Virus record (IMG/VR): IMGVR_UViG_3300032236_001503
Location: 1-64,000 of that record
Reading direction: 5' to 3' (one strand)
Length of the DNA stretch: 64,000 nt
DNA from: a virus
Shown here: positions 30,701-46,009 of the stretch, in pieces
How the letters are laid out: each line of letters starts with the position of its first letter
Numbering within the stretch: the first letter of the stretch is position 1
The notes under the pieces: model-generated
The model's input: the letters and a program-made list of their open reading frames with translations, nothing else
What the model was told of the DNA's origin: nothing
Database searches by the model: none
Made by a program: the position numbers and the translations under genes

Positions 30701-33285
30701 AATATATATGATAATCCAGAATTACCCTCAATGTATACTGGAACCCAATTGTATGCATCTTGACCATAATTTTGGCATATAATCCATTGATAACCAACAT
30801 CAGTTTGATTTAAATAAACCCAAACTGATACACTCATTGCCCCACTACCAACATCAAATAATCCAGCAGGAAATTGTAGATAATCACTACCACTTGTTAA
30901 TTGTGCGCCATTACCCAATATACCTTGCACTAATGTAGGTGATCCAACTGGTGTTAAATTGTTACCATTTCCTGTTATGTCCGTCCAGTTGGAATCATTT
31001 AAATCATAATATGCTATAGCTCCAGCAAAAACATTGCTAGATGCATTATAAAGTTCAGATACTTCCGTTTGTGTCAGAGATCTATTATATGCATAAAAGG
31101 ATCTTACCTTTCCTTGCAAGTAACTAGTAGTACCCATATTAGTAACCGAAGGGTATCCAATATAATACGATAAGCCAGCACTATTATTATACGGAGCATT
31201 TCTGTTTATATTTGTTGTTCCGACTATTTCACCATTTATATATGCAGTTAAAGTTGTTCCATCATAAGTGAATCCAACAAGATACCATTGATTAAATGCT
31301 CTTGGTGTTGATGATACCTTTTGTGAATAAGATCCATCATTATACCATGTACAAAAATTTATGGTTCCATCTTCTTCTATTTCAATTTGTGAATCAGTCC
31401 AACCCGAATTATAATAACCATGTTCAGAAATAATCTGACCAGCTTGTTGAGGATAAACCCACACAAAAATAGATTCAGATGTTGAACTATAATATTGTCC
31501 TAAATCTGGAGTTGTGGATATATATGCATTTGAACCATCTAAAATTATTTCTCCATTGTTACCAAAATTACCATTATTATTATATGACCAATTTCCATTT
31601 AACGCAGCATTATTTGCATTTATTGAAAGATCATTTATCAATGCACCACTACCAGAATAACTTGATGAATTTGAAACATCAAAATAATATATTAATCCAT
31701 TAGTAGGAATATTAACAGAACCCGAACTATTAAAATATAATCCTCCGGTTGTAATACCCGATAGCGCATAAAGACTTAATGTACTAGGTGTTAAATCTAT
31801 TGTTGTGTTAACAGGATGACCAGCTGTATTTCTTAAATATGAAACATCAAACTGGGATAGTGGTGTTTTTATGAATCTATAATTTACATTACTAGTTTGA
31901 TCGTTTGATGTATTAAATGATAAAACTTCTGCTGGAGAATTAACATCATTTGAATTTAAATATCCTCTGTATTCTACAATTTCGGGAGATCCTGCAATCC
32001 AATCCGCTACGTGTGTAACGGTTCCATCTTGCTCTGGTACAATTGAATAACCTCCTTGATACGGAGATTGTACACCATTAGATCCTTGATCTGAAAATAT
32101 CGAAGATCTGTGATAGAGAGTTCCACCAATTGGATCAACTTCATAGATAACACAACGTGCATTGGGTGCTGCCCCACTCTCATCATCATAGCACGATATC
32201 ATGAAATTACTTGCATTATAAATAGGCTCTAAATTTGGTTGCCATCTTGCATCGTGTTGAGCACATGTTCCACTGTATTGATATCCGTTATAATATGGCT
32301 CGTCTTGTATATTATTGTAACGATTTTCAAACCAAACGGTATTATTTAATTGTCCGTTTTGATTATTACCTATATCTTGTAATCTAGTTCCATAATATGG
32401 TTGTTGACCCTGAATAACCCATAGTATATTTTTTGTTGCATATTCGATACAAACTAAAGTTGAAGTGTGTCTGAAACTACAAAGTACATCACCTGTTGTT
32501 GGATGAACATCAACAGAATTTAAATGGAATGTATCTCCATCATAACCATCATTATTAAAACAACTATCACTATAAAAATCCCAAACAACATCACCTGATG
32601 GAGTTTGTTCTTGTAGATAGAATCCATCGTTAGTATAACATTCGGTGATGACATTACCAAATCTACTTGGTGTTTTTATTTGTTGAACTTCATGGACATC
32701 CCAACCATAATAAACTGGATTATTATTTGTATCATTATGAACATAATGACCTGTATAGTTAATAATATCATTTTGAATTTGAGCAACACCTTTAACCGAA
32801 TAGTTATTTGAATTTAATGCCAACCAATTAGTGTCACAACCTTGGTGTAGACTGAATGCCGCACCTGTATCATCTGTTGCATACCAAATTGGTACTGCAT
32901 TTTTATCATATATGAAATAATATGTGCCATCTCCTCCATTGTTTCCGTGTGCTGTTAAATAGTAACCAGAAATATAATTTTCGGTTGCAGGATAAGTTAC
33001 CGTAAGTGGCATTACACTTTGTGGTAAGAATCTTATGTAATAAGAAGAACTAAGGTTGTCGGTTAAACATACTAAATCATTTGCATGAATTTGAGCAACT
33101 TGATTGTTGGTATATTGGTTTCCATTTACATGGATATTCCAATTGTTGAGTTGAGATCCTACACTTGTTGTGGTTCTTACACAATAATCAGTAATAGTAG
33201 ACGAAAACGTAGGATAAAGAGTATTACTACCAACCGTTGATGTAATACTAGAAATCGGTACTGAAACTGTTATATTGTATAGCAT
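27703..33285 (-). CDS. Virion adhesin: N-terminal aryl-sulfotransferase (ASST)-like domain, five LamG/ConA-like domains, C-terminal PA14/GLEYA domain
   Basis: ASST motifs DVHE, FHLNSVD, CSFRH, AQHDAR; LamG ends such as DEVGIWNRALSQ; PA14 motifs GYFKAP..YSDDASYLWIG..YYPIRIQYG. Confidence 0.8.
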   Translation of the reverse strand: MLYNITVSVPISSITSTVGSNTLYPTFSSTITDYCVRTTTSVGSQLNNWNIHVNGNQYTNNQVAQIHANDLVCLTDNLSSSYYIRFLPQSVMPLTVTYPATENYISGYYLTAHGNNGGDGTYYFIYDKNAVPIWYATDDTGAAFSLHQGCDTNWLALNSNNYSVKGVAQIQNDIINYTGHYVHNDTNNNPVYYGWDVHEVQQIKTPSRFGNVITECYTNDGFYLQEQTPSGDVVWDFYSDSCFNNDGYDGDTFHLNSVDVHPTTGDVLCSFRHTSTLVCIEYATKNILWVIQGQQPYYGTRLQDIGNNQNGQLNNTVWFENRYNNIQDEPYYNGYQYSGTCAQHDARWQPNLEPIYNASNFMISCYDDESGAAPNARCVIYEVDPIGGTLYHRSSIFSDQGSNGVQSPYQGGYSIVPEQDGTVTHVADWIAGSPEIVEYRGYLNSNDVNSPAEVLSFNTSNDQTSNVNYRFIKTPLSQFDVSYLRNTAGHPVNTTIDLTPSTLSLYALSGITTGGLYFNSSGSVNIPTNGLIYYFDVSNSSSYSGSGALINDLSINANNAALNGNWSYNNNGNFGNNGEIILDGSNAYISTTPDLGQYYSSTSESIFVWVYPQQAGQIISEHGYYNSGWTDSQIEIEEDGTINFCTWYNDGSYSQKVSSTPRAFNQWYLVGFTYDGTTLTAYINGEIVGTTNINRNAPYNNSAGLSYYIGYPSVTNMGTTSYLQGKVRSFYAYNRSLTQTEVSELYNASSNVFAGAIAYYDLNDSNWTDITGNGNNLTPVGSPTLVQGILGNGAQLTSGSDYLQFPAGLFDVGSGAMSVSVWVYLNQTDVGYQWIICQNYGQDAYNWVPVYIEGNSGLSYILLDNNSSWSDQDSNVSPTANQWHHIVTVVNNGTACQYLDGVLLSNTSTYAAPIQATNSTFTLGAYTGNGSGQGLTNIFDEVGIWNRALSQADVTRLYNSGKALPYKTNKPIPHNLVLWLDSTNPSSYTNGSLSWNDLSNVGNNASLSIPSPTYNNKFLSFDGSSNYVSTIDGAGLTTFTISLWVNTTESGTSDLYWQQPSLIGKGSAGVDTGDFGITTNNGYIGMWGGINTTGYDDYYYLSTTTKINDGKWHNIVVSNDGSNAVLYVDGRPEGGSFATGGALDNTENFWIGGMHGDQYTPSGFYHSGLINDVLFYTSGLNADEILTNYNNFKSKYYNTSSTIGKLLFSGNTLSGTIVSPLQTGLQAYWKMDEISGTRYDSVSNQQMTETNGSVGSTLGINDKSADISNGNNSWLTLPAGVCDVGSNQKSFSIWFKLNETNIGYQFIGPMQGTGHDYDELNVLYIEGNSTLNMLFNTDSENHWAINLGNNIIPTANEWHHYVATFGNGICTAYYDGNQIAQFSYSGAILSSNGQYTLGHYDAFPDGINGQAGIFYGQIDEFEIWNRVLSPSEVTSLYNSGNALSHPFNLTSDLKAYWKFDGNGTDSSGNGNDLTDSGGTSYVNGIVNQAASFQDNGVYLYNNNNYDLSGDFTLSCWVNFNDTNYNYFFFCGQNPGSMYFGYNENGLQISRYVTDDASFGYPSLNVGTWYHMVLVRQGGNATCYINGQQQGSTQNYPYDLSGKMFFGYEPNYGNGLNGLMDEAGIWSRALSQDEITQLYNNGRGLTYPFFGKVYPKLIIRSTIPVSTYQNGLYGWMYYDNGNSDASFSAGPMSNDPTFFAANTNFKTQNYVATELFNFYVDNSGTIQNLDNYGNFNYNQGYGPTLNNYSWEFLGYFKAPYTDNFTFFTYSDDASYLWIGNNAVSGFTTSNCNVNNGGSHGTQGSFSSPVSLVGGQYYPIRIQYGQGAGGAILTVGYSSNSETNVTNWQGIAYHRTNQDFAP

Positions 33286-33335: not shown

Positions 33336-35744
33336 TTAAACTATACATGCACCATTCCAGTATAGATGCGTTCCATCACTTGTTAAGCAACCACCATTGA
33401 TGTTTATTGCGTTTACATAAGTGTAGTTTGAATTATTGGCGCAAATATTAGAACCTAATATAAAGACATTTGAATTTCCACAATCTTGGTTATTACATCC
33501 ACCTAGAATTGCAGAACAGTTGCCAGAAGCAGTATTACATGAACCACCAGATACAGTAGAAGCATATCCAGAGGCTGTATTATAACAACCGCCAACTACG
33601 CTTGCAAATCCAGAAATTGCACAATTATATCTACCGCTAACTACAAGTGGAGCAAATCCACCACCCGAATTACAAGCAAGATTATAAGCACCAGAAACTG
33701 TTGTTGCGGTATCACCAAGTGCTGCATTACACCATCCAGCAAGAACTGCTGCTGCATTGCTACCAATATTAAAAACAGTGGAATATGCAGAGTTACTATT
33801 ACCACCGCCAATAAAATCGTAATTACCACATGCTTTGTTATAATGACCACCAGTGATTGTTGAGCAATATCCAGCAGCGCAATTACAAGATCCTCCCCCT
33901 ATTATTGAATATGTGCCAGAAGCAGTATTGCATATACCACCAAGGATAGAACTACCATTACCACTGGCAATGTTGCAGTAACCACCACTTACGGTTGTGT
34001 CATATTCACCAGAAGCTGTATTGCAACCACCACCGAGAACTGCTGACCAACCAATAGTTGCAATTGCACTATTATGTCCACCACCAGCAACAACTGAGTT
34101 TGTACTAGAACAACCAGTTACGTTATTTACACCACCTAAAATTGATGAATGAGTACCACATGCTGTATTGTTACCACTTGATGGTTGTATTGAACAAACT
34201 CCACATCCAGCAACCAATACTCCACTTATACCACATCCGTATATGCAGCCACATACACATAAATTATTTTCAACGAAAACACCGCAACAGAAATTGAGAC
34301 TTAATGTTGCATCACCATGACCACATGTGTTGGTCCCATCGGTTAATACAACTTCACTACCTCCACCTATAATTGAAGAGGAATAAACCGAATTTGTTGT
34401 AGCAAGATTATTTACATATGTTGTATTATCTTGAGTTGATGTGATGTTTGCACCAATCGCAAAAGAACAATTGTTTTGAACATTATTGTTTACTCCACCT
34501 AAAACTCCAGAATGTGAACCACCGACATTATTTGACCCATCCTTTGCTTGTATTGATGCGCAGCCGCTACCATAACAATATGGTGTATTTGAATTATTAA
34601 ATGCATTACATAATGCACACCCAGTTGTTGCATCATAACATGCATAATTGGCATAATTGGTACTATAAGCGTATCCTGAATTTGATACACAACCTTGAGC
34701 ACAAAGACCATTTATGTATACTGAATTAGAGCTATAAATATTATTATAACATTGATTTATTAATGTATTATTATTTCCATAATTGGTAACATAACAAGAA
34801 TTTGTAAAATTATTGTTAGAACCATATGATGCTGTGTTACATGAATTAATAAATGTATTAGCATTATTAGGATCATAGTTATTATAACCACAAGTAGGAT
34901 ATCCAATTAGGCAAAATCCACGGCTGTCACATCCTGCACATTGAGCACAACCAGCACTATAAGCATATCCCGAATAAGTTGAACAATAAGCATATTCTGA
35001 ACAATAAGCATTATAAGCATTATAAGCATATCCTGAATTTGATACACAACCATTTGCAAAAAGTCCGTTTATGTATACCGAATTGGAATTATATATTGTG
35101 TTATTGCATTGATTTATTACGATTGTATTATCAACACCGTACCATGTAGTTACGCCATTTGAATTGATGAATGTATTTGTATTGTCACAATCATAATTGT
35201 TACCATATCCACTAGCGAACCCAGCTAAACAAAACCCACGGCTATCACATCCTGCGCATCCTGCGTATTGAGCACAACCTGAGTATTCAGAACCATAAGC
35301 GGCGTAAGCACTATTAGCATATCCTGAACATGTAGCACACCCAGCAGTATTGGCATTACCAGCGTTAATTGCATAACATGAGTTTGTAGCAGTTCCAGCG
35401 GTGCAAGCATATCCTGAGTTTGTAGCAGTTCCAGCGGTGCAAGCATATCCTGAGTTTGTAGCGGTTGCAGCTTCAGTAGAAAAATTAGCAGAAAGTGAAT
35501 TAACCGAATTTTTTACCGCACAACCATTATTTCCATTAATAAACCATGCTATACAATGATTAGCATCGTCACATTTTGCAGTATTGGCATTACTACTAGT
35601 TCCACCACCACCGATAGCTGAACTTACATATTTAGTAAATGTACAAGCATCTACACTGTAATTTGATCCACTTCTTACTATTGGTACTATATCTCCTGTT
35701 TGTAAGCAGCAGGATTCTGGTAGTTGGGAAAATTTGATTGACAT
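33336..35744 (-). CDS. Cysteine-rich fibre protein
   Basis: About 65 Cys in 802 aa (hand count); N-terminal MSIKFSQLP..GDIVPIV; AxxAxx repeats; YadA-like NTASG..SxxGG repeats. Confidence 0.75.
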   Translation of the reverse strand: MSIKFSQLPESCCLQTGDIVPIVRSGSNYSVDACTFTKYVSSAIGGGGTSSNANTAKCDDANHCIAWFINGNNGCAVKNSVNSLSANFSTEAATATNSGYACTAGTATNSGYACTAGTATNSCYAINAGNANTAGCATCSGYANSAYAAYGSEYSGCAQYAGCAGCDSRGFCLAGFASGYGNNYDCDNTNTFINSNGVTTWYGVDNTIVINQCNNTIYNSNSVYINGLFANGCVSNSGYAYNAYNAYCSEYAYCSTYSGYAYSAGCAQCAGCDSRGFCLIGYPTCGYNNYDPNNANTFINSCNTASYGSNNNFTNSCYVTNYGNNNTLINQCYNNIYSSNSVYINGLCAQGCVSNSGYAYSTNYANYACYDATTGCALCNAFNNSNTPYCYGSGCASIQAKDGSNNVGGSHSGVLGGVNNNVQNNCSFAIGANITSTQDNTTYVNNLATTNSVYSSSIIGGGSEVVLTDGTNTCGHGDATLSLNFCCGVFVENNLCVCGCIYGCGISGVLVAGCGVCSIQPSSGNNTACGTHSSILGGVNNVTGCSSTNSVVAGGGHNSAIATIGWSAVLGGGCNTASGEYDTTVSGGYCNIASGNGSSILGGICNTASGTYSIIGGGSCNCAAGYCSTITGGHYNKACGNYDFIGGGNSNSAYSTVFNIGSNAAAVLAGWCNAALGDTATTVSGAYNLACNSGGGFAPLVVSGRYNCAISGFASVVGGCYNTASGYASTVSGGSCNTASGNCSAILGGCNNQDCGNSNVFILGSNICANNSNYTYVNAININGGCLTSDGTHLYWNGACIV
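35379..35462. repeat. Exact 36-bp tandem repeat (~2.3 copies)
   Basis: tgagtttgtagc at 35379, 35415 and 35451; encodes ATNSGYACTAGT. Confidence 0.9.
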
Positions 35745-35753
35745 TACTAATAA

Positions 35754-36302
35754 TTATCCTTCGGATATGAAGAATATATTATTTTCTGTTATAAACTCTA
35801 ATCCCTGTTCGGTTACAAAGGAATTTATAGGGATAAATGATAAAGTATTATTAATATAAATACCAGATACACAAGGTCTTTGTATATCCGTTGCACCAAC
35901 CCACGAACTAGTAAATGGAACCCTACTATCTTGTGAAAGAATGCCAAAACCTGCTTCATTTTGGAAAATTATGTCGAAAAATCCAGAATCTTGAAAAATT
36001 TCAGGTAAGTTTAAAACTGCATATTTTTCAGAGCTAAAATCAACATATTCTGTTACATCTACACCACTGAAACCTATGTTTGTACTGGAAAGTTTTTCAG
36101 AATTATAAAATGGATTTATATATTCTTTATCTAATGAAAATAAAGAAGGATTATTTGAACTTAAGTAAACATTTGTTATATTGTAAAAAGATCTACCCAC
36201 CAATACCAATGCTGGTAAGCTTGAATTGGTTTGATTTAATGTAAAAGCATAGAAGTTTACATCAAATGGTTGAGGTCTGGCATTTTTTACAAAATGATCC
36301 AT
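35754..36302 (-). CDS. Hypothetical structural protein (Ig/IPT-like) with C-terminal TE-repeat motif
   Basis: Directly follows the portal gene; ends FVTEQGLEFITENNIFFISEG. Confidence 0.55.
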   Translation of the reverse strand: MDHFVKNARPQPFDVNFYAFTLNQTNSSLPALVLVGRSFYNITNVYLSSNNPSLFSLDKEYINPFYNSEKLSSTNIGFSGVDVTEYVDFSSEKYAVLNLPEIFQDSGFFDIIFQNEAGFGILSQDSRVPFTSSWVGATDIQRPCVSGIYINNTLSFIPINSFVTEQGLEFITENNIFFISEG

Positions 36303-36305
36303 ACA

Positions 36306-38177
36306 TTATGCAGTTGGTGCTGGTGTAGCCTGTGCTGCTGCACCAGTTTCTGGTGTTTCGGTTGCTGCTTGAGCTTCTGGCGTTTCGGTTGTTGCTCCAG
36401 CTGCCCCACCACCTCCAAATTCGGGGATTTCAGATGCAGTTGGTGCTCCACCGCCACCACCTGCGGCTGGGGCTGCTCCACCTGCACCGAGAGCACCTGC
36501 TGCTTGTTCTGCTGCTTCGATGTGTTCACGCCAGTTCGGTCCTGTCTGTGCAATCTGATCCAATTCCCACTTGAGGGCTGCATCTTTTCTGAGCCATTCC
36601 ATGTTTTCGGATATTTTAGCATCATTTAAACCAAGGTAATGTCTTTGGGCAAATGTCTTGGAAATTGATTCATTCTGAGACATGTTGTTAAAGTTATTAT
36701 ACTTTAATTCAAATTCCTGATTCTTTCTTATTGCAAAATAATTGGAAGGTGGGTTGAAATGTATATCGAAATATGACTCATGCATTCCATATTCTTTCCA
36801 CCATCCACGGAGTTTTAAGTGTGTTACGAATGCTTCCTTTAATCCGGTTGAAAATTGATTCTGAACACGGACAATAAACTTAGCAAAGCGTAATTCTTCT
36901 CTTAAAATCTCTGCACCATCCTTGTATCCTTCGTCTGGATTCATTCTTGTTAATGGTACTTTGAGACTCTTGTAGAGTTTGTTTACGAAATAGGTTAAAT
37001 CTTCAATTTTACCAAGATTTGCTCCACCTTGCATTAATTCAACATCACTTCCACTTTCACCTTGACGTTTTGCAAACCAATATGAATCTAACATGGACTG
37101 CGGATCATAGATATTTCCTGCGCCCTTGCCTGATTGTGAGTCATAGGTCTTTTTTGACCAGTATGATTGCATGAGTTGTTTTAAATATGCCTCTGCTTTT
37201 GCTGGTGGCATGTTACCAACGTCAATTTTAAATTTTAAACGCTCTGGAGCACGTACCATTCTATAGATAACGACAGCATCTTCAAGTAATGAAACCTGTT
37301 TATATGCACGACGAGCATTTTCAAGGAAAGGAACCTTGATCGACATGTCTTCGTTCCACATTCCTGAGTTAATATAGGTAATCTGATTGCCTTGGAACGT
37401 GATTAATTGCTGTTGTAATGAATTAGAATTGTTTTGTGATGGTGGCGGTGCGGATGGGCTATTTGGACTATTAGCATTTTGTTGTAAGCTAATTGGTTTT
37501 TGGAATATAAAGTTTTCAATTACATTATTTTGAACATTATCATAGACAGGGTTAATGAGTTCACCGGGTATGTTAAGTACACCAATAATACCTAATTCCT
37601 TTTTTCTTTCATGAACAACATTTTCAAAGAAAATTTCACCTTCAATTAATAATTGACGACAATATCCCCATCCTTTGTGTTCTAAATCAAAAACCTGAAT
37701 GAATTTATAGAATTCTTTTTCTATTTCACTTCTTTCGGTTGATTCCAACTTACCAAATGTTGAAAATCCAATTCTTAAGAACTTATCTTCATCATCTTTA
37801 TTTAAAAATTCATCACAAATTTCATCTAAACAATCTGAAATTTCAGCATATGAACCCATTCTGCGATATTCTGCAATTCTACGAACCTTATCAACGTCAA
37901 CGCTGGCATAAATGTACTTGTGATAAGCATGATCTGATGTAAAAGAACCTGCACCATATTGATCTGTATTCTGGCGCATGGCAGGACCGGTAATAACGGA
38001 CTGCTGCATAACACGATATTCGTGTCTTTTAGCTAAACGATCAAAGAGTTCATATCGTGGATTACCAATATCTGCATCGACTGCATCTTGGATGTAGGGT
38101 AATCTTGAAAGAATATTGGATATAAAATTTCTACCGTTATCAGGCTGTCTATTCGGTGTTGGTAATACGTCAGGCAT
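36306..38177 (-). CDS. gp20: Portal vertex protein
   Basis: LLEDAVVIYRMVRAPER, IDVGNMPPAKAEAYL, KLYKSLKVP, EILREELRFAKFI. Confidence 0.97.
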   Translation of the reverse strand: MPDVLPTPNRQPDNGRNFISNILSRLPYIQDAVDADIGNPRYELFDRLAKRHEYRVMQQSVITGPAMRQNTDQYGAGSFTSDHAYHKYIYASVDVDKVRRIAEYRRMGSYAEISDCLDEICDEFLNKDDEDKFLRIGFSTFGKLESTERSEIEKEFYKFIQVFDLEHKGWGYCRQLLIEGEIFFENVVHERKKELGIIGVLNIPGELINPVYDNVQNNVIENFIFQKPISLQQNANSPNSPSAPPPSQNNSNSLQQQLITFQGNQITYINSGMWNEDMSIKVPFLENARRAYKQVSLLEDAVVIYRMVRAPERLKFKIDVGNMPPAKAEAYLKQLMQSYWSKKTYDSQSGKGAGNIYDPQSMLDSYWFAKRQGESGSDVELMQGGANLGKIEDLTYFVNKLYKSLKVPLTRMNPDEGYKDGAEILREELRFAKFIVRVQNQFSTGLKEAFVTHLKLRGWWKEYGMHESYFDIHFNPPSNYFAIRKNQEFELKYNNFNNMSQNESISKTFAQRHYLGLNDAKISENMEWLRKDAALKWELDQIAQTGPNWREHIEAAEQAAGALGAGGAAPAAGGGGGAPTASEIPEFGGGGAAGATTETPEAQAATETPETGAAAQATPAPTA

Positions 38178-38215
38178 TTGAATTATTTAGTATAATAATA
38201 TACTTATCAAGATAC

Positions 38216-38243
38216 TTGACTTAAAATTACTTTATAGTAAATT
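38216..38243 (+). promoter_or_regulatory. Sigma70-like promoter TTGACT-N16-TAAATT, 6 nt before the GT9-like ATG
   Basis: Same geometry as five other promoters in the window. Confidence 0.6.
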
Positions 38244-38249
38244 TAAAAT

Positions 38250-39188
38250 ATGGACAAATACGTTATCTTTCACATTGATGGTGGTTGTGGTAAAAACATA
38301 GTCGCTACTTCTGTTGTTAAATCAATCAAAGCCGCTTACCCTGAACACAAATTAATCGTAGTAACCGCATGGCCCGATGTCTTCGTTCATAATCCAAACA
38401 TTTACAGGGTTTATAGATTTGGAAATATTCCTTATTTTTATGATGATTACATTAATGGTAAGGATTCTGTCATTTTAAGATATGAACCCTATCATTCTGG
38501 TGATCTTCTTTATCGTAAAAAGTCATTGGCTGAAATTTGGTGTGATGTTTTCAATATACCTTGCGTAGATGTTAAGCCAGAAATAGTTTTAACCGAAAGA
38601 GAGCTTCTATTTGCTCAAAAACAGCTTCAAAAGGACGGACCCGTTCTCCTCATACAATCCTCTGGTGGAGCGGAACAACAAGGTCATCCTTATTCTTGGT
38701 CAAGAGACCTTCCTCCATCACTTGCACAGGAAATTGTTTATTCAGTTAGGGATAAATTCAGTAAAATCCTCCATGTTAGAAGAGAAAATCAACCAGCATT
38801 GGATGGAACCATTCATGTAAGTGATTCCTTTAGAAATCTCTTCTGTTATATTGCACTTTCAGATAAAATTCTTGGAATTGACTCGTTTGCTCAACATGCA
38901 GCTGCTGCTTTTGATAAAAAAGCAACGGTTGGTTGGATTTCTAACTCTCCTGTTGTTTTTGGACATAAAATTCATGACAATATTCTAGCAACTGGTGCAG
39001 AATCATTCCGTCATCGTATTGATTCTTACCTTGAAGAGGATGATTGGACAGGTGGAAGATTCCATGAGTGTCCTTATGACAATATTTCTAATCTTTTCAA
39101 TAAAGATCAGTTTATTGAATCGATTTTAGGTTCAAAAACCGATTTAACTTTTGAAATTGCCGATCAACCAACTATTAAATTTAACTAA
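38250..39188 (+). CDS. GT-B glycosyltransferase, GT9/heptosyltransferase-like
   Basis: N-terminal GGCGKNIVAT..AAYPEHKLIVVT..NPNI and C-terminal LGIDSFAQHAAAAFDKK match the GT9 pattern (GD..; G.DSG..H.A.A). Confidence 0.8.
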   Translation: MDKYVIFHIDGGCGKNIVATSVVKSIKAAYPEHKLIVVTAWPDVFVHNPNIYRVYRFGNIPYFYDDYINGKDSVILRYEPYHSGDLLYRKKSLAEIWCDVFNIPCVDVKPEIVLTERELLFAQKQLQKDGPVLLIQSSGGAEQQGHPYSWSRDLPPSLAQEIVYSVRDKFSKILHVRRENQPALDGTIHVSDSFRNLFCYIALSDKILGIDSFAQHAAAAFDKKATVGWISNSPVVFGHKIHDNILATGAESFRHRIDSYLEEDDWTGGRFHECPYDNISNLFNKDQFIESILGSKTDLTFEIADQPTIKFN

Positions 39189-40012
39189 TGAAAAACATAT
39201 TCTTTAATTCATCGATGCCTCGTAGTATGAGTACACTTTTGCAGTGTATTTTAAATCAACACCCTGAAATACAGGCTACACAAACCGATCCGGTTTTAGA
39301 ATATCTTTATGGTGCAAGAGTGAATTTCACCAATACACCAGAAGTTAAGGCAATGGATCAAGAACTTGCTTTAAAGACTTGGAGAGGTTTCTGTAAGGGT
39401 GGCTTAGAGGGATATGCAAATTCATATACTGATAAACCAAATCTTTGCATTAAGACTCGTGGTGGAACTATTCATTACAAGTGGTTTGAATCATTCATGC
39501 CTTATAAGCCAAAAATGATTTGTATGGTTAGAAATTTAAAAAGTGTTTTTTCTTCGATGGAAAAACTTTATAGAAAGAGTCAGGAATACCATCAGGAAAT
39601 CCAAAATCACTCAGAAATGAAAGGTACATCAACCGCAAAGAGAATTGATGCTTGGGTTGCTTCACCTCCTGTTGGTATGGCTCTTGAAAGACTTCAGCAA
39701 ACCTTCTTGGAGGGTATTAATAAGGAAGTTCTTTATGTAAGAGCAGAAGATTTAACAAGTTATCCACAAAGAGAAATGGATAAGGTTTATACCTATCTTG
39801 GTATAGAAGGATTTAAGCACGATTTTGATAATGTTGAACAAACAATCAAGGAAGATGATTCGGTTTATGGTTTAACCAAGGATCTTCATACAATCAAAAG
39901 AAAAGTTCAACCTTTAACTCCCGATTATACGGAAGTTTTAGGAAAACAAGTCTGTGATTGGATTGATAGCAATTTTGCTTGGTATCAAAAGGGATTTGGT
40001 TATACCAAATAA
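39188..40012 (+). CDS. PAPS-dependent sulfotransferase family protein
   Basis: 5'-PSB-like PRSMSTLL..ILNQHP; 3'-PB-like MICMVRNLKSVFSS; VRAEDLTSYP; start overlaps the GT9 stop (TAATG). Confidence 0.85.
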   Translation: MKNIFFNSSMPRSMSTLLQCILNQHPEIQATQTDPVLEYLYGARVNFTNTPEVKAMDQELALKTWRGFCKGGLEGYANSYTDKPNLCIKTRGGTIHYKWFESFMPYKPKMICMVRNLKSVFSSMEKLYRKSQEYHQEIQNHSEMKGTSTAKRIDAWVASPPVGMALERLQQTFLEGINKEVLYVRAEDLTSYPQREMDKVYTYLGIEGFKHDFDNVEQTIKEDDSVYGLTKDLHTIKRKVQPLTPDYTEVLGKQVCDWIDSNFAWYQKGFGYTK

Positions 40013-43000
40013 TTAGTTAATCTTATAGATTTCTACCTTTGTCCAATTGCCATCAGATGTGCCAATTATCTGTTGACCTGATACACTACTGTATCCTGAG
40101 AAGTTAACGGAATCGGTTGTTCCATTGAAATATAATATAGCAGTTGATGTTTGTGATTGTGATGCACCAGTTCCAGTATACAATGGCATTTGTACAAGAG
40201 ATTTTGTATTAGATCCATTTAAGCGAATCTGTGAATTGTTTTGACCTGTACCCGTAGTTGAACCCCATGCTATTTGATATGTAACCATGTAGTAGCCGGG
40301 TATTTTTGGTGTTATCACACCAGATAATGCTGGATATGTTCCAAGATTTGATACCCATCCATTTGGATCATTTTTAACTGTTAATGGCAACCAATAATCA
40401 AGATTAGCTGATGAATTTATATTAGCCGAAACGTAAGCGGTTGCTGTATAGTTTGTATTAGTTGAAAGGTTTCCAGTTGCACTAATACTACCATTAACTG
40501 TTAATGTTGTATTTGGTGTTGATGTTGCAATACCAACGTTACCATTGTTGAGTATACGCATTCTTTCAGCACCTGCACCGATTATTACGGTGTTTGATAC
40601 ATCAGAACCTGCTGCAAGTCCAGTACCTAAAATTGTGTTATTTGAACCATAAACAATATTAGCACCAGAATTTATACCTAATACTACGTTATTACAACCA
40701 CCGATTGAATTACCTAAACTACCTGCACCTAAAACTGTGTTTCCGCAACCAGAAACAGATGCATACATTGTTCTGCAACCAAATGATATGTTAGAAGAAC
40801 CACAGGTGTTAACCTGCATGGCTTGATAACCCATTGAGAAATTATTAGTACCCGTAGTTGTAACTGGCTGACTTGAATACCCAAGTGATATGTTGTTATT
40901 ACCTGAAGTTAAGCCGTATAAATTACCTCTACCTAAAGCTATATTGTAGCCACCAGAAACCGTACCCGGTATGTTCAAGCAACCAATAGCAATGTTTTGA
41001 CAACCAGTAGTATTTGCTAAATAACCATTTATATTTCCAGATCCAATTGCAATGTTTCCATTGGAAACACCATAACAACTTGAAAGATTGTTACAACCAA
41101 TACCAATATTAACACAGTTATCAACACGGATTTTTTCTCCACCTGCACCGAGAATCAATGAATTACATACATCAGTATTAGGAGAAACACTAGCACCCAA
41201 AATTGTATTAGAGCACCCATTTATTATATTGGCTCCTGAACCGCAACCAATTGAGATGTTAGCACAACCAGTTGTTAAAACTCCTATTGCTCCATAACCA
41301 AGACCTATATTATGATTTCCTGATAGGTTATTGTTTAATGATCTATAACCAACTGCGAAGTTGTGTCCACCAGATGTATTGTTATATAATGTCTGATAAC
41401 CAAATGCAATGTTACAACTTCCTACTATATTTCTATATAAACTATTTGTACCAATTGCAATATTCATCCCAGCAGTAGTGACAGATCCCAACATGCTAGT
41501 ACCAATAGCAATGTTTTGATAGGCTGAACTTGTACTACCACCATAAAGGTTTACACCAAGACCTATATTATTACTACCTGTTACATTGGGTGGAATTGAA
41601 TTAACACCTATACCGATATTAGAATTACCTGTTATATTACAAATAGCACCACGACCGACTTGATTACCAATAGCAACATTATAACAACAATCAACACGCA
41701 TTTTTTCTACGCCACCAGCACCAAGAATTAAAGTATTGTTTAAGCAACTATTTCCATTTGCACCACTTCCTAAAAATGTATTGCTACAACCACAATAAAA
41801 AGAACCACCAGCATTTGTTCCAATTGCAGTATTATTACATCCTGAAATTGCACCCTGTAATGTTTGAATACCTATAGCAACATTTTGACAACCACATGTG
41901 TTGGAATTCATGGAATAACCACCAAAGGCAACGTTATCATTACCACATGTATTATTTCTCATTGTAACATAGCCAAATGCAAAGTTATTACTTCCTGAAG
42001 TATTACTTTGAAGAGTAAATGAACCCATTCCAAAATTACTTGATCCACAACCACCACCATTAATAAATGAACCCAATGCAACGTTACCACTTCCGGTTGT
42101 CATTGATTGAAGGTTATTTGAACCAACCGAGAAGTTGTTTGAGCCACAATTATAACCCATTGCAGCACCACCTAGAGCAACGTTATTTGAAGAATCAATT
42201 TGTAATCTTTGATAACCAGCGTTAATCGATAATAAGCAACTAACGTTGTTATAACTTGTTCCTGCTCCAGCACCAAGAAATGTATTATAGCAACCACACT
42301 GTGAATTTGATCCTGCGTTGTTACCAATGGCAACATTGCAACAACCCGAAAGATTACTATATAAACTAAGTTGTCCAATTGCCACGTTAAAACAGCCACA
42401 TGTGTTGCTTTGCATACTACATGCACCTATTGCAGTATTGTAACAACCGCATGCATTAGTTAATAATGAATTAATTCCAATTGCTTGATTGCAAGTTCCT
42501 ATTGTATTATTTCTTAAAGTTGATTGACCTAACGCAATGTTATCACTACTAGTAGTATTACAACATAAAGCACTATTTCCAATTGCTATATTATTACCAC
42601 CTGTACTATTACATTGAAGCGATGCTTGACCTAATGCAATGTTTTGTGATCCGGTTGTATTTCCAAGTAAAGAATTTCCACCAAATGCAAAATTACAATT
42701 TCCTGTTGTATTATTTAAAAGATTTGAACCACCATGAGAAACGTTATTGCAACAATCGATACGCATTTTTTCTGAACCAGCACCAAGAATTAATGTGTTA
42801 TTTAAACATGTATTTCCAATGATACCAGTTCCTAAAAATGTATTGCAACATCCATATTGTAACGATCCACCACTACCATTTCCGATGGCTGTGTTATAGC
42901 AACCAGAAACAGCAGCAAATAAACTACCTGCTCCTATTGAAACGTTATTAGAACCACAGGTTGTTGCATAAAGACTATTTGTACCCATTGATATATTGGA

Positions 43001-46000
43001 ACATCCACAAACATTATGATTTTGTCCATAAATTGCAATATTTTGATTACCAGATAGATTTTGAGCAAGTGAATATATACCTATTGCGATATTTTGACAT
43101 GCTATATAATTTGCATTACAGATATTACCACCAAGCATACCTATATTACAATGATATCCATCAATACGCATTGATTCACTACCTGCACCAAGAGCCAATG
43201 TATTGTTTAGTGTAGCATTACCAGCAACACCTGAACCTATAAATGTGTTATTAGATCCATATTGTAATGCACCACCTGCTTGTTTACCAATAGCCACGTT
43301 GTTGTTTCCTGATATAGAATTAGCTAATGCACAATAACCACTGGCTGTATTATCACTGCCGCAAGTATTGCAATATAATGCTTGAACACCGTGAGCAATA
43401 TTTCTTGCACCACATGTATTAAGTGCCAATGAGTAATATCCTAAAGAAATATTAGATGAACCCGATACATTAGTATTTAAAGTACCAGCACCTATTCCGA
43501 TATTACCAGAACCGATTCCACCGACCGTTTGTGAAATAATAGCAACATTATTATTTCCTGTAGTTGTTGCATTGCCTCCTAATGCAACGTTGCCACAACC
43601 AGTGGTAATGGAGCCACCTGCTCCACAACCTATAGCAATGTTACTAGTACCAGTTGTAACGTTCTGTAATGCACCATAACCAATAGCATGATTAACACTT
43701 GCTGTACTGCTATTTCTTAATGCATTAAAACCTATTGCTACGTTATTTGAACCAGTTGTATTGCAACCTAAAGCCGCCCATCCAATAGCCTGATTATAAC
43801 TACCTGTACTATTACATTGAAGAGCACCAGAACCAATCGCCTGATTGTGATTTCCTGAAATGTTACATTGTAATGCTGAACCACCAAGTGCTTGGTTATT
43901 TGCGCCAGTTGTATTATATTGTAATGCTCCAGATCCAATTGCTTGGTTATTATTTCCGGTTGTATTTGATGCAAGAGCCGAATTGCCACCGATAGATGTA
44001 TTGGTAGTACAATTGTTTGCACCTGTTGATGTTACATATTGTGAACATAACATACCTCCAGTAGAAAGATTATTAACATATGTGGTATTTGCTGCACCTG
44101 CTGTTATATTAGATCCTAAAATAAATGTATTTGATTGATTATTTGTATTATTTGAACAACCACCAGCAATAAAAGTATAAATTCCCGAATTTGTATTTGT
44201 TCCAAAATTAGGATTTACGCAATTTCCTATTAATTTATATGGTTGACTAGAAAGTTTTGCAAATGTTGTGACATTGTATGTTGGGTTATTTGTTGCACTA
44301 TTAGAGTTTACATAACTATAAACTGAAGCATTATTAGCAGATTGAGATTGGAAACCACTACCTGAACTCCAACCACCACTTAATGAAAACACTTGAGAAT
44401 AAACTGATTTATCATTTGCTGATAGTGCTTGTAAGAACGAAATACTGTTCCAGTTTGCGGAATTAGAATTAACATTACTAAATACAGAAAGATTATTAGC
44501 TGATTGGGATTGTAAAGTTGTATACGCACTGTTATCTTTAATCCAATTAGCTGAATTAGAATTAACACTACTATAAACTGATGCATTATTAGCTGAATTA
44601 GAATTTACATTACTGAATACAGAAAGATTATTAGCTGAATTAGAATTTACATTACTGAATACAGAAAGATTATTAGCTGATTGGGATTGTAATGTTGTAT
44701 ATGCACTATTTCCACCATTCCAAGTAGCTACTTGTGAACCAACTACGGTTCCAGCATTACAAGCATATCCTGAATATGTAGCATTATCAGCATAACACGC
44801 ATGATATGAATTATAAGAATATCCCGAATTTGTAGCGCACCCAGCATTTGAAGCATATCCTGAATTGGTAGCATAATTTGCATTACCTGCATTTGAAGCA
44901 TATCCTGAACATGTAGCGCACCCAGCATAATTCGCATTACCTGCATTTGAAGCATATCCTGAATTAGTAGCACATGCAGCATTACAAGCATATCCTGCAT
45001 TTGTAGAATAATCCGCAGTACCATGTAAATTACCAACTACGGTTCCGCTTAACGAACCTAATACATTAGCTCTTAATGTATCGATAGTAAATGTTGGATC
45101 ACTATACATTAAATTTGGGTAATCTAATGGTTCTGTTGTTAAACCACTAAATAAACTCCAAACTCCACTTACAGCTGATCGAATCAAGCCAGTGTGTTGA
45201 TATCCTGATGTTCCGTTATCTAAATTACCGATAAAGTGACCAACAAGACCCATATCGTAGACATTTCCTTGTCCAGAAAGTGATTCAGCAATATAAAGTA
45301 TAGGTGAAGATACTTGAAATGTTGTTGTATTTAAAACAATCCCAGAACCAGCAACATATAAGTTACCAGTAATGTTTAAATCACCCGGCGTGGTTATCGA
45401 TGGAGTAAATCCAACTGTAACTACACCATTGTTTACCGATGTGTTAATTTGATTTGGTGTACCTTGGACTGATGTAACTGCCAAATATAATGAACTTAAA
45501 CTGCTTACATTATTATAGGTGTTATTCCAAATATCAGAGCTTAAACCACCAACAACTGTTTCATAAGCAAATTGCCAATCTGAACTTAATGCATTAGTTA
45601 GATTATAATTGGAAATCCAGTTAGCAGAATTGGATTGTAGTGTTGTATTTTCACCACCCATGTTCCAAATGGCTGAATTTGCAAAAACTGATGAATATAC
45701 ACTATCCCAATTTGAACTTAACGAATTAACCGTAATTGTTACATCATTCCATGAACCAAAATTACTAGTTACAAGATTATTTAATGTGTTAAAAAGGGAT
45801 AAATCGGTTTTTAAAAGTAAAGCACTTAATGTTGCATTAGAAATTGGTTTATTTAAATCACTAGTATTATCAACTTGATCTAACCCTAAGTCGGATTTCG
45901 TAATTGTTACATATCCACCTTTACCATTAACAGAAATAACACCTCCGCTTCCTATTACGTTAACGTTATTACTTGGTATATTCGTAGTTATTGTTACTTG

Positions 46001-46009
46001 TTGTTCCAT
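40013..46009 (-). CDS. Long cysteine-rich fibre with SAN repeats, YadA-like NIAIG repeats and C-terminal C1q-like domain
   Basis: VISVNGKGG..LGLDQVDNTSDLNKPIS; dozens of N[IV]A[IL]G..L..NT[TC]G units with Cys; terminal TPKIPGYYMV..LYFNGTTDSV. Confidence 0.8.
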   Translation of the reverse strand: MEQQVTITTNIPSNNVNVIGSGGVISVNGKGGYVTITKSDLGLDQVDNTSDLNKPISNATLSALLLKTDLSLFNTLNNLVTSNFGSWNDVTITVNSLSSNWDSVYSSVFANSAIWNMGGENTTLQSNSANWISNYNLTNALSSDWQFAYETVVGGLSSDIWNNTYNNVSSLSSLYLAVTSVQGTPNQINTSVNNGVVTVGFTPSITTPGDLNITGNLYVAGSGIVLNTTTFQVSSPILYIAESLSGQGNVYDMGLVGHFIGNLDNGTSGYQHTGLIRSAVSGVWSLFSGLTTEPLDYPNLMYSDPTFTIDTLRANVLGSLSGTVVGNLHGTADYSTNAGYACNAACATNSGYASNAGNANYAGCATCSGYASNAGNANYATNSGYASNAGCATNSGYSYNSYHACYADNATYSGYACNAGTVVGSQVATWNGGNSAYTTLQSQSANNLSVFSNVNSNSANNLSVFSNVNSNSANNASVYSSVNSNSANWIKDNSAYTTLQSQSANNLSVFSNVNSNSANWNSISFLQALSANDKSVYSQVFSLSGGWSSGSGFQSQSANNASVYSYVNSNSATNNPTYNVTTFAKLSSQPYKLIGNCVNPNFGTNTNSGIYTFIAGGCSNNTNNQSNTFILGSNITAGAANTTYVNNLSTGGMLCSQYVTSTGANNCTTNTSIGGNSALASNTTGNNNQAIGSGALQYNTTGANNQALGGSALQCNISGNHNQAIGSGALQCNSTGSYNQAIGWAALGCNTTGSNNVAIGFNALRNSSTASVNHAIGYGALQNVTTGTSNIAIGCGAGGSITTGCGNVALGGNATTTGNNNVAIISQTVGGIGSGNIGIGAGTLNTNVSGSSNISLGYYSLALNTCGARNIAHGVQALYCNTCGSDNTASGYCALANSISGNNNVAIGKQAGGALQYGSNNTFIGSGVAGNATLNNTLALGAGSESMRIDGYHCNIGMLGGNICNANYIACQNIAIGIYSLAQNLSGNQNIAIYGQNHNVCGCSNISMGTNSLYATTCGSNNVSIGAGSLFAAVSGCYNTAIGNGSGGSLQYGCCNTFLGTGIIGNTCLNNTLILGAGSEKMRIDCCNNVSHGGSNLLNNTTGNCNFAFGGNSLLGNTTGSQNIALGQASLQCNSTGGNNIAIGNSALCCNTTSSDNIALGQSTLRNNTIGTCNQAIGINSLLTNACGCYNTAIGACSMQSNTCGCFNVAIGQLSLYSNLSGCCNVAIGNNAGSNSQCGCYNTFLGAGAGTSYNNVSCLLSINAGYQRLQIDSSNNVALGGAAMGYNCGSNNFSVGSNNLQSMTTGSGNVALGSFINGGGCGSSNFGMGSFTLQSNTSGSNNFAFGYVTMRNNTCGNDNVAFGGYSMNSNTCGCQNVAIGIQTLQGAISGCNNTAIGTNAGGSFYCGCSNTFLGSGANGNSCLNNTLILGAGGVEKMRVDCCYNVAIGNQVGRGAICNITGNSNIGIGVNSIPPNVTGSNNIGLGVNLYGGSTSSAYQNIAIGTSMLGSVTTAGMNIAIGTNSLYRNIVGSCNIAFGYQTLYNNTSGGHNFAVGYRSLNNNLSGNHNIGLGYGAIGVLTTGCANISIGCGSGANIINGCSNTILGASVSPNTDVCNSLILGAGGEKIRVDNCVNIGIGCNNLSSCYGVSNGNIAIGSGNINGYLANTTGCQNIAIGCLNIPGTVSGGYNIALGRGNLYGLTSGNNNISLGYSSQPVTTTGTNNFSMGYQAMQVNTCGSSNISFGCRTMYASVSGCGNTVLGAGSLGNSIGGCNNVVLGINSGANIVYGSNNTILGTGLAAGSDVSNTVIIGAGAERMRILNNGNVGIATSTPNTTLTVNGSISATGNLSTNTNYTATAYVSANINSSANLDYWLPLTVKNDPNGWVSNLGTYPALSGVITPKIPGYYMVTYQIAWGSTTGTGQNNSQIRLNGSNTKSLVQMPLYTGTGASQSQTSTAILYFNGTTDSVNFSGYSSVSGQQIIGTSDGNWTKVEIYKIN
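44585..44680. repeat. 42-bp coding tandem repeat
   Basis: attattagctga at 44585, 44627 and 44669; encodes SANNLSVFSNVNSN. Confidence 0.9.

Follow-up and report, generated by a model that had tools for sequence, protein, structure and literature searches.

A glycosyltransferase-sulfotransferase gene pair beside cysteine-rich tail fibres of aquatic phages: a candidate system for fibre modification

Tail fibres decide which host cells a phage can infect. To our knowledge, the glycocin enzymes (sublancin, glycocin F and thurandacin type) are the only well-established case of bacterial enzymatic S-glycosylation of cysteine. Among protein glycosyltransferases, TibC and AAH are encoded by genes that adjoin, and are often co-transcribed with, the gene of a long beta-helical repeat adhesin, and the TibC dodecamer is built by a four-cysteine iron finger and a beta-barrel insertion (PMC4358343). 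In mycobacteriophages, virion glycosylation (Freeman et al. 2023) attaches glycans to the C-terminal ends of capsid and tail-tube subunits, as described in PMC12619734. Here, we analyzed a 64,000-nucleotide stretch of viral DNA (positions 1 to 64,000 of IMG/VR record IMGVR_UViG_3300032236_001503; the window), in which a gene pair encoding a predicted glycosyltransferase (GT, P0001) and a predicted sulfotransferase (ST, P0002) lies between the genes of two cysteine-rich fibres (P0003 and P0004). As with TibC/AAH, the GT gene is found beside beta-solenoid fibres, in the window and likewise in phages HTVC111P and HTVC112P and numerous viral contigs. What is new here is a quantitative link between the GT and Cys-rich fibres, together with a positional pattern of Cys within the fibre repeat. 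No paper in the literature collection searched joins phage tail fiber, virion, glycosyltransferase and sulfotransferase.

Cysteine-rich fibres and their association with the glycosyltransferase

Relatives of the GT were encoded by at least 572 IMG/VR contigs. To describe their surroundings, we defined a fibre-like open reading frame (ORF) as one of at least 250 amino acids with at least 38% Asn, Gly, Ser and Thr, and examined 101 GT loci. Control fibres were collected by scanning a viral collection with a degenerate DNA pattern that encodes a single rung of the consensus fibre repeat, a scan blind to both Cys and the GT; fibres were thus defined differently in the two sets, and the statistics given here ignore shared ancestry and habitat. 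In 64 of the 101 loci, a fibre-like ORF was found no more than 3 kb from the GT, and the ST adjoined the GT in most close relatives. In distant relatives (L030, L031, L039 and L042), the GT lacked an ST beside it and lay between giant fibre genes, in line with them, and in HTVC111P and HTVC112P the start of the GT gene overlapped the end of a fibre gene belonging to the same 17-residue repeat family as P0004.

Fibre-like ORFs of the GT loci had a median Cys content of 2.06%, with 52% of them reaching at least 2%, compared to 0.33% for 79 fibres from records lacking the GT (Mann-Whitney p 1e-16, kinship ignored). This proportion rose to 20 out of 23 for fibre-like ORFs located within 300 bp of the GT, and among the 10 GT sequence clusters with a fibre-like ORF, 9 showed the enrichment. 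In the blind sample, only five of 81 fibres (median, 0.33% Cys) contained at least 2% Cys. The GT was detected in only 2 of the 77 records searched, and the fibres of these two records ranked second (3.6%) and fifth (2.2%) of the 81 (chance 10/3240 = 0.003); the remaining three high-Cys fibres were on records estimated to be 7-24% complete. Among cultured phages, the fibres of GT-bearing HTVC111P and HTVC112P contained 1.5-1.9% Cys, against 0.1-0.7% in GT-less Venkman, CRP-1, CRP-7 and a Manatee Spring phage. For homologues of the UspA1-like fibre P0003, GT and ST were adjacent in three of five high-Cys fibres, a fourth being probably on one contig with the GT, whereas the GT was adjacent in none of three low-Cys homologues for which DNA was available; about 9 kb from one of these lie an ST and a truncated 313-aa ORF. 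Enrichment was seen in loci without an ST (2.6%) as well as in loci with an ST (1.9%); it is the GT, and not the ST, that Cys enrichment tracks. It was found in both 17-residue-repeat and UspA1-like fibres, and was weaker in fibre-like ORFs of neither type. The co-occurrence of GT homologues with Cys-rich fibres, which a preliminary description of the window made from its sequence had singled out as a point to check, was therefore borne out in several lineages and fibre families.

In the window itself, Cys accounts for 65 of the 802 residues of P0003 (8.1%) and for 73 of the 1998 residues of P0004 (3.7%), compared to 0-3.3%, and mostly about 1%, for the 48 remaining ORFs of the window and 0.5-1.6% for four other giant structural proteins of the phage. 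P0003 also contains 7.1% Tyr. Its N-terminal half carries hexapeptide-like A-x-N-S-G-Y repeats, and residues 568-773 are homologous to the UspA1 head, a left-handed beta-roll (phmmer against PDB, 3PR7, E 2.8e-14). No close orthologue of P0003 was found among 5.8 billion proteins, the best matches showing 35-38% identity. P0004 comprises about 60 beta-solenoid rungs of 17 residues (consensus N-[TVI]-A-[IVL]-G-x-x-[AS]-L-x-x-N-T-T-G-x-x). The rungs make up about six modules, each roughly 135-190 residues long and ending with an NNTLILGAGxEKMRID-like segment, and all 73 Cys of P0004 lie between approximately residues 330 and 1790. Between residues ~620 and 1830, a CC pair often follows the module-closing segment, and Cys positions repeat from module to module. 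The same 17-residue repeat occurs in fibres of Pelagibacter phages HTVC111P and HTVC112P, Methylophilales phage Venkman, Roseobacter phages CRP-1 and CRP-7 and Prochlorococcus phage P-SSM2. Ser and Thr together make up 20-25% of fibre residues, with T13 and T14 forming a ladder in the repeat. The preliminary description had reported a high fibre Cys content with irregular spacing and no recurring CxxC metal motif; both features were recovered, with only six and two CxxC in P0003 and P0004, respectively, and no dominant Cys period.

The distribution of Cys within the repeat was then compared between 357 rungs of GT-linked fibres and 1458 control rungs. In GT-linked rungs, Cys represented 3-16% of residues at positions 6, 7, 10, 11, 14, 16 and 17 and was essentially absent from the conserved positions 1-5, 8, 9, 12 and 15, while in control rungs it remained at or below 2.2% at every position. 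The earlier observation that Cys falls where sibling repeats hold Ser, Thr or Asn thus held, Cys being limited to the variable positions of the 17-residue repeat. Moreover, Cys frequency by position tracked the frequency of charged residues at the same positions in GT-less fibres (rho 0.81, p 9e-5). Since Cys is confined to variable positions that tolerate charged residues, the fibre Cys are probably exposed at the surface. Most Cys-bearing rungs (181 of 233) contained a single Cys, and Cys pairs in adjacent rungs were over-represented for positions (16,16), (14 to 16) and (11,11), with z values of 3.0, 3.8 and 2.7, respectively. Two other explanations of the pattern were rejected: a buried Cys ladder or TmAFP-like internal disulfides in the 17-residue repeat, as conserved core positions are never Cys, and an N-x-C sequon variant as a general rule, as just 13 of the 65 Cys of P0003 and 13 of the 73 of P0004 are found two residues past an Asn.

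The two enzymes, their locus and related cassettes

The GT matched no Pfam family at E<0.1, and PF01075 gave no match even when E-values as high as 10 were allowed; a six-frame search of the genome using PF01075 and a search of PDB sequences with the GT profile both returned nothing. Its sole family-model match was an N-terminal one to TIGR02201 (heptosyltransferase; E 0.0046, 16 bits for a cut-off of 170). Next, 22 relatives with identities as low as 36% were aligned to obtain an AlphaFold2 (AF2) model, which showed two domains with good confidence scores (pLDDT 88.2, pTM 0.86). Foldseek ranks 1-12 for this model were all GT9 structures (3TOV, 1PSW, 4RB4, 2H1F, 6DFE, 2GT1 and 4RAP; TM ~0.5-0.66), with leading E-values of 1e-11 to 6e-8 for 3TOV, WaaF, TibC and WaaC. 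In hhalign comparisons, the I-D-S-F-A-Q-H-A-A-A-A segment of the GT paired with the donor-site motif D-(S/T)-G-x-x-H-x-x-A-A of WaaC and WaaF. Residues D211, S212, Q215 and H216 of this segment are invariant across the 22 relatives (consensus I-D-S-x-x-Q-H-x-A-A-A), and K206 is likewise conserved. An N-terminal loop, H-x-[DE]-G-G-x-G-K, located outside the region aligned to WaaC and WaaF, has invariant H8 and K15 and Asp or Glu at position 10; the catalytic Asp of known GT9 enzymes (D13 in WaaC, D110 in TibC) is N-terminal. Invariance of the DSxxQH motif, K206 and the glycine-rich loop down to 36% identity is typical of an active enzyme. Only two Cys are well conserved (C98 and that of E-C-P), and there is no four-Cys cluster. 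Judging from the model, P0001 is a GT-B glycosyltransferase with a GT9-like fold; the "GT9-like" label of the preliminary description thus stands for the fold and donor motif, and does not extend to the Pfam sequence family.

Assignment of the second gene to the 3'-phosphoadenosine 5'-phosphosulfate (PAPS)-dependent sulfotransferases, also proposed earlier, was upheld by Pfam matches to PF13469 (E 2.1e-11; 45 bits for a cut-off of 27) and PF00685 (E 1.1e-7). The 5'-phosphosulfate loop reads PRSMST in the window and PRSGST or PRAGST in relatives, and R115 and S123 are invariant, consistent with a 3'-phosphate site. Foldseek ranks 1-13 for the AF2 model of the ST (pLDDT 90.4) were all protein-tyrosine sulfotransferases (TPST1 or TPST2; E 7e-10), and a profile search against PDB was likewise led by TPST1 (E 2e-11) and TPST2 (2e-8), with heparan 3-OST reaching only 0.05. 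In a weakly aligned stretch (HMMER), the G-E-E-T segment of TPST1 sits opposite T-P-T-S of the ST, where T31 is nearly invariant and T33 invariant. From sequence and model comparisons, P0002 is therefore predicted to be a PAPS-dependent sulfotransferase whose nearest solved relatives are protein-tyrosine, not carbohydrate, sulfotransferases. We also observed that fibre-like proteins of loci with an ST are low in Asp and Glu (medians, 2.3% and 0.95%) in comparison to those of GT-only loci (4.6% and 2.1%) and GT-less controls (4.5% and 2.3%), kinship being ignored; it looks as if sulfate provided the negative charge.

The window derives from a 163-kb record of a T4-like uncultured myovirus, about 73% complete and with ~32% G+C (Table 1). 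According to its sequence matches, the portal gene marks the surrounding region as a structural module of a T4-like myovirus. Coordinates and strands of the ORFs were all as first described, and the cassette does lie on the plus strand within a minus-strand structural region: between 27703 and 48871, GT and ST are the sole plus-strand genes, all other long ORFs being on the minus strand. The TAA stop of the GT and the ATG start of the ST overlap by 1 nt (TAATG, 39186-39190), and the ST stop (40010-40012) directly abuts the stop of the converging P0004 gene (40013-40015). The cassette had also been credited with its own early-type promoter. This claim was not sustained, as the TTGACT-N16-TAAATT match fits 9 of 12 consensus positions and nine such matches were found for 8.8 expected in shuffled sequence. 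The neighbouring protein P0006 combines an ASST-like segment (PF05935, E 4e-7), five LamG-like domains and one PA14/GLEYA domain. Its ASST segment, for which phmmer found no match among PDB sequences, places a second, PAPS-independent type of sulfotransferase fold beside the cassette. No tRNA gene was found within the 64-kb window, and the pelagimyophage marker CsgG was absent.

Table 1. Features of the window around the glycosyltransferase-sulfotransferase cassette
Feature	Position	Strand	Basis or remark
P0006, 1860-aa virion-type protein, fibre-like neighbour, 1.0% Cys (not Cys-rich)	27703..33285	-	Pfam and composition
P0003, 802-aa fibre, Cys-rich	33336..35744	-	Translated ORF
T4 gp20-type portal protein	36306..38177	-	PF07230 E 2.4e-97; 28-32% identity to cyanomyovirus portals
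72-bp divergent intergenic region, portal/GT	38178..38249		Sigma-70-like match TTGACT-N16-TAAATT
P0001, 312-aa predicted GT, GT-B fold, GT9-like	38250..39188	+	AF2 model and Foldseek
P0002, 274-aa predicted PAPS-dependent ST, translationally coupled to GT	39188..40012	+	PF13469
P0004, 1998-aa fibre	40013..46009	-	PHROG tail spike / virion structural families, E 1e-80 to 1e-85

Related cassettes can be fuller than that of the window, with the order GT, ST, adenosine 5'-phosphosulfate (APS) kinase and small nucleotidyltransferase, and the presence of the last two genes indicates that sulfation is a real pathway. Some cassettes further include genes for a SET-domain methyltransferase, a radical-SAM/SPASM protein, GT8, GT25 or DUF1501. 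In L239 (7348-10246), for example, the GT is followed by a SET-domain protein (PF00856), the ST, an APS kinase and a small CTP_transf_like nucleotidyltransferase, about 2 kb downstream of a fibre with 3.1% Cys; the presence of a SET domain hints that lysines of a protein target are methylated. Additions of this kind were seen in L004 (11760-12755), L006 (10933-11559, minus strand) and L027 (11174-13804): close relatives of the window phage have a radical-SAM/SPASM gene after the ST (L004) and GT25 between GT and ST, and another lineage has two DUF1501 genes just downstream of the GT. When the 163-kb record of the window phage was searched for genes that supply PAPS or heptose and for radical SAM, DUF1501, GT8 and GT25, only a weak APS-kinase-like match was obtained, at genome position 120667-120954 outside the window (34% identical to the L032 APS kinase along 98 aa), which may or may not supply PAPS.

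Other genes of these loci touch on tail modification or host range. HTVC111P (L044, 1240-1647) and HTVC112P (L045, 2453-2839) carry an RTX-toxin-type lysine acyltransferase, HlyC-like by annotation, directly upstream of a large tail protein, which hints at a second tail-protein modification by acylation. Homologues of the curli-secretion proteins CsgF and CsgG are encoded at 1933-3208 of L238, a contig that also bears a fibre with 4.5% Cys and an adjacent ST-GT pair. As CsgF and CsgG are typical pelagimyophage genes (PMC7029224), this points to SAR11-type hosts for part of the GT-bearing group. In another myovirus (L244, 12434-15632), a UspA1-like fibre with 0.0% Cys is followed by NDP-sugar genes (a nucleotidyltransferase and two epimerase/dehydratase genes) with no GT9-like gene, and may represent another type of fibre-adjacent sugar pathway.

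Possible function of the cassette and competing explanations

Taken together, these observations slightly favor the fibre as the substrate of the cassette. A cassette that modifies the phage's own receptor-binding fibres, with Cys as the most economical acceptor and an ST that sulfates the glycan or Tyr, is in our estimate about evenly poised between right and wrong. In the proposed mechanism, the GT would move a nucleotide-activated sugar onto exposed fibre side chains inside the infected cell; the acceptors would be Cys thiols of the beta-solenoid rungs, giving an S-linked glycan that would also cap reactive surface thiols, and the coupled ST would sulfate either this glycan or fibre Tyr directly. 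Cys thiols appear to be the most economical candidate acceptor because fibres with probably exposed Cys at variable positions are found wherever the GT occurs, and an S-link is the only reading that predicts the association between GT and Cys. Even so, we put forward Cys as the acceptor of an S-linked glycan only tentatively. The full proposal, in which the GT9-fold enzyme of many aquatic phages would be a protein S-glycosyltransferase acting on dozens of surface Cys of beta-solenoid fibres, these fibres would have evolved exposed Cys for it and a TPST-like enzyme would add sulfate, is similarly a doubtful, if possible, one.

The preliminary description had suggested a virion glycosylation system in which the glycan is then sulfated. 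Its fibre or protein target gained ground from the co-occurrence with Cys-rich fibres, from the in-line or overlapping GT genes and from the SET and SPASM neighbours. The sugar-then-sulfate order, for its part, was weakened, as the ST is closest to TPSTs and Cys enrichment goes with the GT irrespective of an ST. While coupling of the ST to the GT suggests a glycan acceptor, direct Tyr sulfation is at least as likely as this order.

Several points weigh against S-glycosylation of the fibres. We know of no GT9 enzyme that glycosylates Cys, and the prior for an S-link is low for this reason; the glycocin S-glycosyltransferases (SunS/ThuS/GccA type) presumably belong to a family different from that of P0001. 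Some GT-bearing loci have Cys-poor fibres (L037 with 0.1-0.6%, L009, L066 and L243), and two Cys-rich fibres (L169 with 6.7%, and L237) have no GT on their records, both of which are fragments. The co-occurrence was counted irrespective of shared ancestry or habitat and between differently defined fibre sets, and exposure of the Cys was deduced only from the repeat pattern. Same-position Cys in neighbouring rungs are over-represented (z ~3-4), which fits disulfide staples or repeat duplication, and the cassette of the window lies on the strand opposite to that of the late genes.

In one alternative, the GT O-glycosylates fibre Ser or Thr, the ST sulfates Tyr or the glycan, and the surface Cys are a separate matter, forming inter-rung or inter-chain disulfides that stiffen the fibre after lysis in oxic water. 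TibC and AAH are GT9-fold O-heptosyltransferases that act on Ser of beta-helical adhesins encoded alongside (PMC4358343), and the Ser and Thr content of the fibres with its T13/T14 ladder, the excess of adjacent-rung Cys pairs and the Cys-poor fibres of L037 and L243 would all agree with such a scheme. However, it offers no reason for Cys enrichment to track the GT over lineages and fibre families, and its disulfides are difficult to reconcile with the predominance of single-Cys rungs and with the odd Cys totals of the two fibres (65 and 73); we regard it as fairly unlikely. Modification of the host envelope (lipopolysaccharide [LPS] core, O-chain or capsule), for superinfection exclusion or against re-adsorption of progeny, would make the position beside fibre genes a feature of a mosaic host recognition cluster. 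This is the kind of role, a change of the host O-chain, published for glycosyltransferases of the pelagimyophage host recognition cluster (PMC7029224). Together with that published view, the "LPS-type" GT8 and GT25 genes found alongside in some loci favor an envelope target, which would also suit the work of classical GT9 enzymes on the LPS inner core and the strand of the window cassette opposite to the late structural genes. We nevertheless judge an envelope target unlikely, as it leaves unexplained the link of the GT to Cys-rich fibres, the GT/fibre gene overlap in small Pelagibacter phages and the in-line position in distant relatives, as well as the SET and radical-SAM/SPASM neighbours and the TPST-like ST, which favor a protein substrate.

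A very improbable alternative is that the GT-fold protein is a fibre assembly factor or a small-molecule enzyme, and that the Cys serve as metal ligands or are joined into thioether cross-links by other enzymes. The GT9-like fold has been reused in non-enzymatic subunits, NDH-PSI supercomplex chains being among the Foldseek matches of the GT. Radical-SAM/SPASM genes follow the ST in some relatives, and this family includes enzymes that form Cys thioethers. Conversely, the invariant D-S-x-x-Q-H motif, K206 and N-terminal loop argue against a non-enzymatic protein, the 163-kb record of the window phage contains no radical-SAM gene, and the Cys form no recurring metal-binding motif.

Significance and comparison with known systems

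If fibres of abundant aquatic phages do bear glycan and sulfate added by enzymes, their receptor binding, stability and recognition could not be read from sequence alone. The GT is carried by hundreds of contigs, cultured Pelagibacter phages included, and its co-occurrence with Cys argues for a target other than the published host O-chain modification. Should the bond to Cys prove true, S-glycosylation would no longer be confined to a few small bacteriocins but would include large virion proteins, and this would be the first known case of an S-glycosylated virion and of a GT9-fold enzyme directed at thiols. Such an acceptor chemistry would be new for this fold and possibly of use for hydrolysis-resistant glycoconjugates. 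Fibre decoration can be tested in culture with HTVC111P and HTVC112P, which are grown on Pelagibacter HTCC7211.

The best structural matches of P0001 are WaaC, WaaF and 3TOV (E 1e-11 to 5e-8), with which it has the C-terminal D-S/T-G-x-x-H-x-x-A-A motif in common; unlike WaaC and WaaF, it has no PF01075 match, profile methods fail to align its N-terminal acceptor domain, and its context is one of fibres, not LPS genes. The ST resembles TPST1 and TPST2 (5WRJ, 3AP1) and PF13469 enzymes, its top profile (E 2e-11) and structure (E 7e-10) matches, and has their PAPS-binding loops, but in a weak alignment the catalytic Glu of TPST appears opposite an invariant Thr, and the ST is coupled to a GT. The heads of the trimeric autotransporters UspA1, YadA and BpaC are left-handed beta-rolls with layers of 14-15 residues of the G-x-x-N-x-A-x-G type (PMC9543794). 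P0003, homologous to that of UspA1 over part of its length, has no membrane anchor and places Cys where UspA1 has an aromatic or polar residue before the conserved Asn. The chemistry proposed here is the same as that of the glycocin enzymes, which modify single sites in small peptides, compared to dozens on a virion fibre. The mycobacteriophage system is alike in that phage glycosyltransferases beside structural genes decorate virion proteins; here, fibres with many internal sites are suspected, sulfation comes in addition, and the enzyme is associated with Cys enrichment. Finally, TibC/AAH and their adhesins TibA/AIDA-I (4RB4, 4RAP) are similar to this cassette in the GT9-type GT-B fold (Foldseek E 1.5e-8) and in the many acceptor sites expected along a repeat. 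They differ in that P0001, with 312 aa compared to ~406 for TibC, has neither the four-Cys iron finger nor the beta-barrel insertion, and in the acceptor, which is Ser on a secreted adhesin for TibC and is suspected to be Cys on a phage fibre here. By analogy, the cassette is best read as working like TibC/AAH with their adhesins, yet outside that family.

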